A stretch of 22,217 nt of DNA, taken from UHGV virus genome UHGV-0138564. One strand, given 5' to 3'. Shown here one piece after another: positions 16,832 to 16,927 of the stretch. The stretch comes from a virus. Each line of letters starts with the position of its first letter. Position 1 is the stretch's first letter. The position numbers were made by a program, and so were the translations under genes. Under the pieces are notes generated by a model. The model saw only the letters and a list, made by a program, of their open reading frames with translations, searched no databases and was not told where the DNA came from.

Positions 16832-16880
16832 GGGGCGGGAGCGTCGCGGAAAAAGGCTAGTTTTTGAAATTTCATTCGTC
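16832..16880. other. Lambda-like cos site (cosN and proximal cosB)
   Basis: GGGCGGGAGCGTCGCGG (16833-16849) matches 13 of 17 positions of the recalled lambda left end GGGCGGCGACCTCGCGG; the downstream TGAAATTT and TTCGTCAT blocks also resemble lambda; sits about 170 bp upstream of the terminase small-subunit gene. Confidence 0.5.
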
Positions 16881-16887
16881 ATCACCA

Positions 16888-16927
16888 CCACTGTAATAGA
16901 TTGATATTACAGTGGTTTTATTTTTAT
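16888..16927 (+). terminator. Strong hairpin (10-bp perfect stem CCACTGTAAT / ATTACAGTGG, 8-nt loop) followed by TTTTATTTTTAT
   Basis: Perfect stem and T-rich tail between cos and the terminase gene. Confidence 0.6.

Follow-up and report, generated by a model that had tools for sequence, protein, structure and literature searches.

A probable lambda-type cos site with a palindrome over its putative IHF-binding segment in an mEp460-like lambdoid prophage

We analyzed a stretch of 22,217 nucleotides (hereafter the window) from the virus genome UHGV-0138564, with particular attention to the region ahead of its terminase genes, where an initial annotation had placed a lambda-like cohesive-end (cos) packaging site followed by a strong hairpin. 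We identify positions 16805-17018 as a complete lambda-type cos of an mEp460-like lambdoid prophage, comprising cosQ, cosN and a cosB of about 170 bp, and, with a probability of about 0.72, we posit that it would work as the lambda site does. This reading is carried by sequence homology, collinear architecture, the pattern of conservation and the way in which cosB diverges jointly with the N-terminal part of the small terminase subunit (TerS), all of which are observed directly. The hairpin lies on a likely bending site for the integration host factor (IHF), within that part of cos which TerS is predicted to recognize. The site is an ordinary lambda-type cos, with a common cosN allele, of a very common prophage family, and it involves no new mechanism; its newness is confined to a sequence-level account of cosB for terminases with DUF1441-type small subunits and to a local hypervariability.

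The genes that follow cos on its 3' side retain the lambda order, terS-terL-W-portal, and code for a DUF1441 small terminase, a large terminase (TerL) of the GpA family, a W-like head-tail adaptor and a lambda-family portal. The terS gene (17019-17513, + strand) was recognized by Pfam PF07278 (E = 2.7e-41) and by PHROG_141, 'terminase small subunit' (E = 7e-74). The 700-aa product of terL (17513-19615, + strand) contains both an ATPase (PF05876, GpA_ATPase, E = 7.6e-72) and a nuclease domain (PF20454, GpA_nuclease, E = 3.3e-85), each scoring far above its cut-off, and shares 24% identity with lambda gpA in an alignment of 623 aa (E = 4e-18). As both GpA domains are found in TerL and every lambda cos subsite is present, we rejected headful packaging as an alternative. 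From cos into the terminase genes the DNA is 98-99% identical to that of the phages phi458, 569R4, mEp460, mEp460_4F5 and Ayreon, for the last of which the genome note predicts cos packaging from TerL phylogeny only. For the study of variation, the window was compared with 80 IMG/VR loci coding for an identical TerS protein; the diversities (pi) and counts out of 81 sequences given below refer to this set.

The cosN element (16831-16846, without strand assignment) reads CG/GGGCGGGAGCGT/CG, the slashes marking the predicted nicks, and aligns to lambda ACG/GGGCGGCGACCT/CGCGG with the flanking ACG on the left, the CGCGG on the right and the entire left half identical. Thus, the lambda frame CG/GGGCGG....../CG and its 12-nt spacing are both reproduced, and the predicted nicks would generate a 12-nt 5' cohesive end, GGGCGGGAGCGT, at 16833-16844. 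The bases before the predicted nick are ...CCACG in the window and ...TTACG at the lambda right end. The count of four differences from lambda in seventeen positions made in the initial annotation is borne out by alignment to the lambda ends: 16833-16849 is GGGCGGGAGCGTCGCGG, the lambda left end is GGGCGGCGACCTCGCGG, and they differ at bp 7, 8, 9 and 11 (bp numbers run from 16833). To speak of a divergent core on these grounds is, however, an overstatement. Differences at bp 7-12 are common among lambda-like phages, as in N15 (at 9 and 12) and Gifsy-1 (at 8, 9 and 11), and it is the CG dinucleotides on either side, together with the left half of cosN, that are under selection (PMC4669245). More generally, the natural variants of cosN (N15, Gifsy-1, mEp213/LLS) are restricted to bp 7-12 with the flanking CGs and left half conserved (PMC4669245, PMC12315714), and the window obeys the same restriction with bp 7 changed as well.

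When IMG/VR was sampled for sites combining cosQ with the cosN left half (131 sites), 25 right-half alleles were recovered, among which the lambda allele occurs 64 times and that of the window 14 times, second in rank. The mEp213/LLS allele (GGGCGGCGCGCT) was seen 8 times and GGGCGGCAGCGT, which is probably the Gifsy-1 type and from which the window allele differs only at bp 7 (C>G), 5 times; the alleles GGGCGGGAGCGG and GGGCGGGAGCAT also occur in the sample. Since all four changes sit in the known variable half, and since the allele ranks second among these sites, the window cosN is best described, from its sequence, as a common allele of a variable half-site. The 81 close relatives repeat the pattern, with the left half GGGCGG invariant (pi = 0) and the right half polymorphic, such that bp 12 of the predicted end (16844) is T in 66 and G in 15 members of the mEp460 lineage. 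The two-fold rotational symmetry of cosN extends over 8 of 16 positions, as in the mEp213 type (8/16), with 10/16 in lambda.

Database records of other phages provide an indication of where the ends would lie. The GenBank records of cdtI (AB285204) and Tritos (OV696610) begin at the equivalent of 16833, that is, at the same predicted nick, with the same GGGCGGGAGCGTCGCGGAAAAAGGCTAGTTTTT, and the cdtI record ends in ...GGGTCCTTCCGGTGGGGTGGCCTGCCACG (...CCACG). The virion-derived assembly of mEp460_4F5 (LR595868) breaks 5 nt to the left of the predicted nick and, within positions 1-30 of the record, is missing 3 nt (TCG) that the window has at the right margin of cosN; both are suggestive of an artefact of assembly where the DNA physically ends. 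In Cr-LKS3, a phage whose TerS is of the DUF1441 type, the 5' cohesive ends have been established by experiment, and these too lie about 130 bp upstream of terS (PMC9303873). A literature search with the exact 12-mer returned only an unrelated mammalian paper, and Mathieu et al. 2020 contains no DNA-end data.

The cosQ heptamer GGGTCCT (16805-16811, + strand) matches the lambda heptamer exactly and is kept in 80 of the 81 sequences, in keeping with the high conservation of cosQ, which is without variation among lambda-like phages (PMC4669245). Homology to the relatives starts just 5' of cosQ, the sequence further upstream not being conserved. Between cosQ and cosN lies a highly polymorphic spacer (16812-16830, + strand; pi 0.15), which leaves 21 nt between cosQ and the nick in the window. 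The lambda distance is 23 nt, and every one of the 14 IMG/VR sites that share the cosN allele of the window has 22 nt; a distance of 21 nt recurs in only 2 of the 131 sites. Alone among the 81 sequences, the window is missing one base of the G-run at 16818-16823 (GTGGGGGGCC vs GTGGGGTGGCC), which could reflect either a true lesion in this copy or an error in sequencing a homopolymer. Were it real, the cos site might be a relic, with a prophage copy that packages inefficiently on account of a cosQ-cosN spacing off by one base. We regard this as quite improbable, given that all other cos subsites and all packaging genes examined are intact and that an error in homopolymer length could produce the same shortening; we found no data on whether altering the length of the spacer by 1 nt has any effect.

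To the right of cosN, a conserved block (16845-16878, bp 13-46, + strand), invariant across the 81 sequences from 16851 to 16872, occupies the position of the lambda I2 region. The layout of cosB was traced by comparing the interval from the nick to the start of terS in nine phages with a DUF1441 TerS, namely the window, PhiR40_1, CP-1639, Chris1, mEp043, Kp4865-4, VT1-Sakai, Fels-1 and Gifsy-2. The nine sequences align collinearly with almost no indels and display a common order of elements: a CGCGG...GGC...TTTTT block, an R3-like repeat (~bp 45-59), TAAnnnnTTGAT, an inverted repeat (~bp 94-104), GTTTTTTG and a direct R1-like repeat (~bp 120-133). The repeats have the core TC[AG][TA]CA[CT]C, and their 3' tail co-varies within each of the nine phages, as exemplified by Gifsy-2, where CACTGAA follows all three copies; in Fels-1 (over 10 bp) and Gifsy-2, R2 and R1 constitute a perfect inverted repeat.

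In the window, the R3-like repeat TCATCACCACCAC (16879-16891, bp 47-59, + strand), a putative TerS-binding site, is a direct repeat of the R1-like element, matching it at 11 of 13 positions, and has low diversity (pi 0.016). The R2-like repeat ATGGTGTCGAT (16926-16936, - strand; reverse complement ATCGACACCAT) forms the inverted core at bp 94-104, where lambda has R2 at 101-116. It is followed by the conserved GTTTTTTG and the R1-like repeat TTCATCACTAACAC, which together span 16944-16965 (bp 112-133, + strand) in the family alignment, the R1-like element itself being 16952-16965 (bp 120-133). The lambda R3 lies at bp 50-65, and lambda is cut 47±2 bp from the R site (PMC9026076). Hence, at the level of sequence, the arrangement recapitulates that of lambda: the R3-like repeat is found at about 47-59 bp past the nick, a putative IHF site separates it from the inverted R2-like repeat, and the R1-like repeat is next to the start of terS. 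The two sites nevertheless differ in that the repeat core is unrelated to lambda CGTTTCC, and that R2 and R1 are closer together in the window. In Chris1, mEp043 and Kp4865-4, the R1-like repeat takes up the 12 bases that precede terS and runs on without a gap to its start codon (TTCATCATCATG or TTCACCATCATG), whereby cosB overlaps the translation start of terS in these phages. We found no published experimental description of a cosB recognized by small terminases of the DUF1441 class.

A further line of evidence comes from the mosaic relationship of the window to PhiR40_1. The two are 100% identical over bp 1-33, drop to 54% over bp 34-100 and 70% over bp 101-186, remain at 74% over terS codons 1-65, and return to 98.3% over terS codons 66-164 and 97.5% over terL. 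With the divergence thus confined to cosB and the first ~65 codons of terS, the two appear from the alignment to diverge together as one cassette. In lambda and 21, the packaging-specificity cassettes likewise consist of cosB and the N-terminus of the small terminase; the mosaic of the window and PhiR40_1 is of the same kind, and the sequence pattern suggests that here too it would set packaging specificity. The comparison with cdtI complements this, since cdtI and Tritos are identical to the window in cosQ, cosN and bp 1-33, whereas past bp 33 the cosB of cdtI is unrelated and its TerS is only 42% identical to that of the window. As the match with cdtI extends through bp 33 only, the cosQ-cosN module is shared across different cosB/TerS specificities.

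The hairpin noted initially lies within this cosB. It is a perfect inverted repeat, ACCACTGTAATA / TATTACAGTGGT, at 16887-16916 (+ strand), with arms at 16887-16898 and 16905-16916, a 6-nt loop and a trailing T tract, TTTATTTTTA; the perfection of the stem and the T-rich tail were thus correctly described, although the stem measures 12 bp rather than the 10 first given. Its arms are 100% complementary over the 12 bp, an RNA fold of its 66-nt context yields -21.7 kcal/mol (z = -5.45, with none of 200 shuffles as good), and a DNA fold of the hairpin gives z = -4.83. No other perfect inverted repeat with a short loop in the window is as long, and randomizing the entire 22 kb 100 times by dinucleotide shuffling yielded no such repeat of at least 12 bp. 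With the sequence confirmed, both the cosN variant and the hairpin are thus real and non-random.

The position of the hairpin suggests what it is built from. Its inner stem and loop carry TAATAGATTGATA on the + strand (16894-16906), which on the minus strand is a perfect match, TATCAATCTATTA, to the IHF consensus WATCAANNNNTTR and would be the equivalent of the lambda I1. The left arm of the hairpin corresponds to the tail of R3 plus the TAA of this core, and the right arm to the spacer between the core and the T tract. The latter (16917-16926, + strand), which had been taken as a terminator tail, also serves as the A/T tract of the putative IHF site, 9 bp from the core. In the IHF site H' of lambda attP, 8 bp separate the A tract from the consensus. 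The candidate thus resembles H' in its perfect 13-bp consensus, the A/T tract on the same side and the similar spacing (9 bp vs 8 bp), and it is centred midway between R3 and R2. It is one of only two perfect matches to WATCAANNNNTTR in the 22 kb, where 0.98 would be expected. The IHF reading is supported by the pattern of variation, in which the TAA (pi 0) and TTGATA (pi 0.012) of the core are conserved and the intervening NNNN is the most variable segment of the region (pi 0.31), with position 16898 divided among A (27), T (28) and G (26). CP-1639 and Chris1 have the same perfect consensus in the same place without the hairpin. Hence, of the two roles initially suggested for the hairpin, that of a cosB element at the IHF site is the better, given a perfect consensus amid R3-, R2- and R1-like repeats, but the palindrome itself is a lineage-specific rather than a conserved feature of cosB.

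This restriction is evident from the homologous segments of PhiR40_1, CP-1639, mEp043 and Kp4865-4, in which no inverted repeat of at least 7 bp was found, making the hairpin, on present alignments, specific to the mEp460 lineage. Even within the lineage its arms are polymorphic (pi ~0.12), the 53-bp hairpin segment occurring as 46 haplotypes in the 81 sequences. The perfect 12-bp version is found in only 9 of them; most carry T at 16889, which gives a G.U pair in RNA and a mismatch in DNA, and the two outermost pairs are frequently disrupted (25/81 have G>T or G>A at 16915). Most of the 46 haplotypes retain some 10 bp of core stem, with minimum free energies of -7 to -17 kcal/mol. A pair-count covariation analysis over 47 distinct haplotypes found 90.4% of cells paired against 89.6% in shuffles, with three cells changed on both sides, which is too weak to separate RNA structure from sequence conservation. 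A purely descriptive tally of the arm variants counted ~9 of 23 variant types as preserving pairing against 19-27% expected. From the lineage restriction, the broken pairs and the weak covariation, it therefore appears that selection acts on the IHF consensus and the R cores and not on the stem.

These data also bear on the other initial suggestion, namely that the hairpin is a terminator insulating the moron upstream. Because it has the form of a terminator, with a 12-bp stem, a 6-nt loop and a stability of -16.7 kcal/mol followed by UUUUAUUUUU, we hold such a role to be possible, though well short of probable. It would then be a working Rho-independent terminator of the + strand, halting transcription from the moron or leaky late transcription in lysogens, and read through by Q-modified polymerase in lytic growth, which is plausible as Q (9275-9652) shares its strand with all of the late operon. 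Termination would be confined to one direction, the minus strand having no T run. The terminase, which could cut the prophage's own cos, would thereby be kept unmade in lysogens, and this might be a second function, compatible with that in cosB and IHF binding. The commonest variants, 16889 C>T, 16890 A>G, 16909 A>G and 16911 A>G, fit G.U pairing on the + strand, and 16915 G>T lengthens the U run. Yet neither the covariation nor the variant tally lends this much support, the stem has only 4 G-C pairs, and the T tract is independently explained by the putative IHF site. Moreover, the hairpin is absent from the PhiR40_1 group (87% identical from cos to terminase), CP-1639, mEp043 and Kp4865-4, and the moron already has an equally strong terminator of its own upstream of cosQ. 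This is a hairpin of -16.0 kcal/mol at 16739-16764, in which RNAfold predicts an 11-bp stem followed by UUUUUU, 25 nt past the moron stop codon at 16714; with its T run it spans 16739-16769 (+ strand), outside cos. Both hairpins begin with ACCACTG, their last bases are GGTGGTT or CAGTGGT, and they are predicted to be almost equally stable, a resemblance that may be coincidental. An R-like copy at 16704-16719 and the ACCACTG shared with the moron terminator were entertained as accessory sites and dropped, as the relatives show no conservation upstream of cosQ.

A palindrome so restricted might alternatively have no function of its own, having arisen as a mutational by-product, for example by a template-switch 'correction' of the quasi-palindrome formed by the R3 tail and the IHF core, which is itself partly palindromic (TAATA...TATTA). 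It could be tolerated because its right arm sits in the spacer of the IHF site, which needs no specific sequence. The lineage specificity, the rarity of the perfect form, the frequently broken outer pairs and the lack of significant covariation are all consistent with this, as is CP-1639, which has the left half (CACCACCAGTGTAAGTTGTTGATAT) without the right arm. We nevertheless find it rather doubtful, given the retention of the core stem in most haplotypes and the failure of a perfect 12-bp repeat to arise in any of the 100 window shuffles.

The arms (ACCACTG ... CAGTGGT) could also constitute a palindromic operator for a TerS dimer, or a cruciform recognized by TerS or IHF, in which case the hairpin would be the primary recognition element for packaging. 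The left arm begins at bp 55, and in lambda TerS contacts R3 at bp 55-63 (PMC9026076). Furthermore, the reverse complement of R2, TCGACACCA-TAAAAATAAAA-CCACTG, equals R3 (TCATCACCA-CCACTG) with an 11-bp insertion, which would allow the right arm to be R2's distal half. However, although TerS is identical in all the sequences compared, the arms are among their most variable positions, while TCATCACCA, GTGTCGA and the IHF core are conserved; the majority T at 16889 produces a T.G mismatch that would destabilize a DNA cruciform; and 18 bp separate the centres of the arms, a distance that does not amount to an integral number of helical turns. We accordingly judge this quite unlikely.

Hence, we favor the reading of the hairpin as the palindromic form taken in the mEp460 lineage by the segment running from the R3 tail through the putative IHF site, and propose the following scheme for cos as a whole. 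The DUF1441 TerS would bind the three R-like repeats of cosB (R3, bp 47-59; the inverted R2, bp 94-104; R1, bp 120-133), and host IHF would bend the DNA at the strong H'-like site (core at bp 62-74, A/T tract at bp 85-94) centred between R3 and R2. The bend would position the GpA-type TerL to nick cosN about 47 bp away, leaving the 12-nt 5' end GGGCGGGAGCGT, and cosQ (16805-16811) would serve the termination of packaging at the next cos. In this scheme the nick positions and the binding of IHF and TerS are predictions drawn from sequence. Further departures from lambda are the cohesive end (bp 7, 8, 9 and 11), the cosQ-to-nick distance (21-22 nt vs 23 nt), a DUF1441 TerS without detectable sequence similarity to Nu1, and an I1 segment that in this lineage is a perfect palindrome.

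Several points weigh against this reading. The literature yielded no virion-end data for the mEp460-like phage group. The TerS of the window showed no BLAST similarity to Nu1, an hhalign comparison with it gave a probability of 6.5%, and fold searches with TerS returned no significant match; with nothing significant from these, a Nu1-like winged helix is suggested only by the motif pattern and the topology of the N-terminus in an AlphaFold2 (AF2) model (strand-helix-helix-wing-strand-helix). The R-like repeats are short and degenerate and were picked by eye in the alignment. The scheme gives no reason for a perfect 12-bp palindrome that is absent in sister lineages keeping the IHF consensus. 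Finally, the window's own copy of cos may be impaired, as its cosQ-to-nick spacing is 1 nt shorter than that of all close relatives.

The sole genuinely odd point of the locus is the very high diversity at the unconstrained positions of cos. These positions, namely the spacer at 16812-16830, bp 12 at 16844, the NNNN within the IHF core and both arms of the hairpin, have a pi of 0.12-0.31, which is 6-15 times that of the four-fold degenerate sites of terS (0.020). The 81 sequences were picked for an identical TerS protein, which lowers linked diversity, but the contrast over a mere 100-200 bp is nonetheless large. Likewise, 11 loci with an identical adjacent coding sequence of 660 nt present 7 haplotypes of the hairpin segment. 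One may speculate, with no great expectation of being right, that unconstrained cos sequence evolves far faster than the synonymous sites nearby, either through a hotspot of mutation or gene conversion at cos or the palindrome, or through diversifying selection on the packaging site. A hotspot could result from processing and repair of the ends once the DNA has been injected, from switching templated by the hairpin, or from exchange between cos sites of prophages that reside in the same host, and diversifying selection could be directed, for instance, against hijacking by cos-carrying satellites.

The sequence map of cosB, with R3, the IHF site, the inverted R2 and R1, helps predict cross-packaging among prophages and cos-bearing satellites, set genome ends correctly in phage records, and design cosmid-like or transduction tools for the mEp460-like phage family. 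The breadth of its relevance is apparent from the presence of the cos region (16790-17030) in 2110 of 5426 complete E. coli genomes (~39%). A scan of 16600-17100 with Rfam found no family near its threshold.

The window as a whole is a lambdoid late region with every gene of the ordered late set on the + strand. Its order starts with the Q antiterminator (9275-9652, + strand) and continues with a DNA methylase gene (11749-12801, + strand) and the lysis genes on the same strand, coding for a P21-type holin, a lysozyme and an Rz-like spanin. Directly after Q is a second perfect inverted repeat (9667-9692; 10 bp, loop of 6), and after this repeat two minus-strand genes (9696-11095), one with a DUF6731 domain, are inserted between Q and the lysis cassette. 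The two-gene moron (14955-16714, + strand) lies between the spanin gene and cos, and its genes (14955-15425 and 15422-16714) give weak PADLOC matches to both components of the anti-phage system PD-T4-10 (A: E = 1e-5; B: E = 2.8e-4). The larger protein also has a DUF6575 domain and a sub-threshold match to DUF7226 (22.8 bits, cut-off 27). Judging from these sequence matches, the moron may be a prophage-borne defence cassette.

In the IMG/VR collection, we also encountered contigs with more than one cos. The 12-kb contig L120 has three direct cos sites of the allele family of the window (67-109, 8202-8244 and 10738-10780). The first is followed by a 164-aa open reading frame (ORF) of the size of TerS and a short ORF of 331 aa at the expected place of terL, as judged by size and position, and the other two precede different ORFs; this contig may represent tandem satellites or a rearranged prophage. 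Five further contigs (L094, L108, L113, L145 and L172) each have two lambda-type cos sites (GGGCGGCGACCT) in convergent orientation, 550-900 bp apart.

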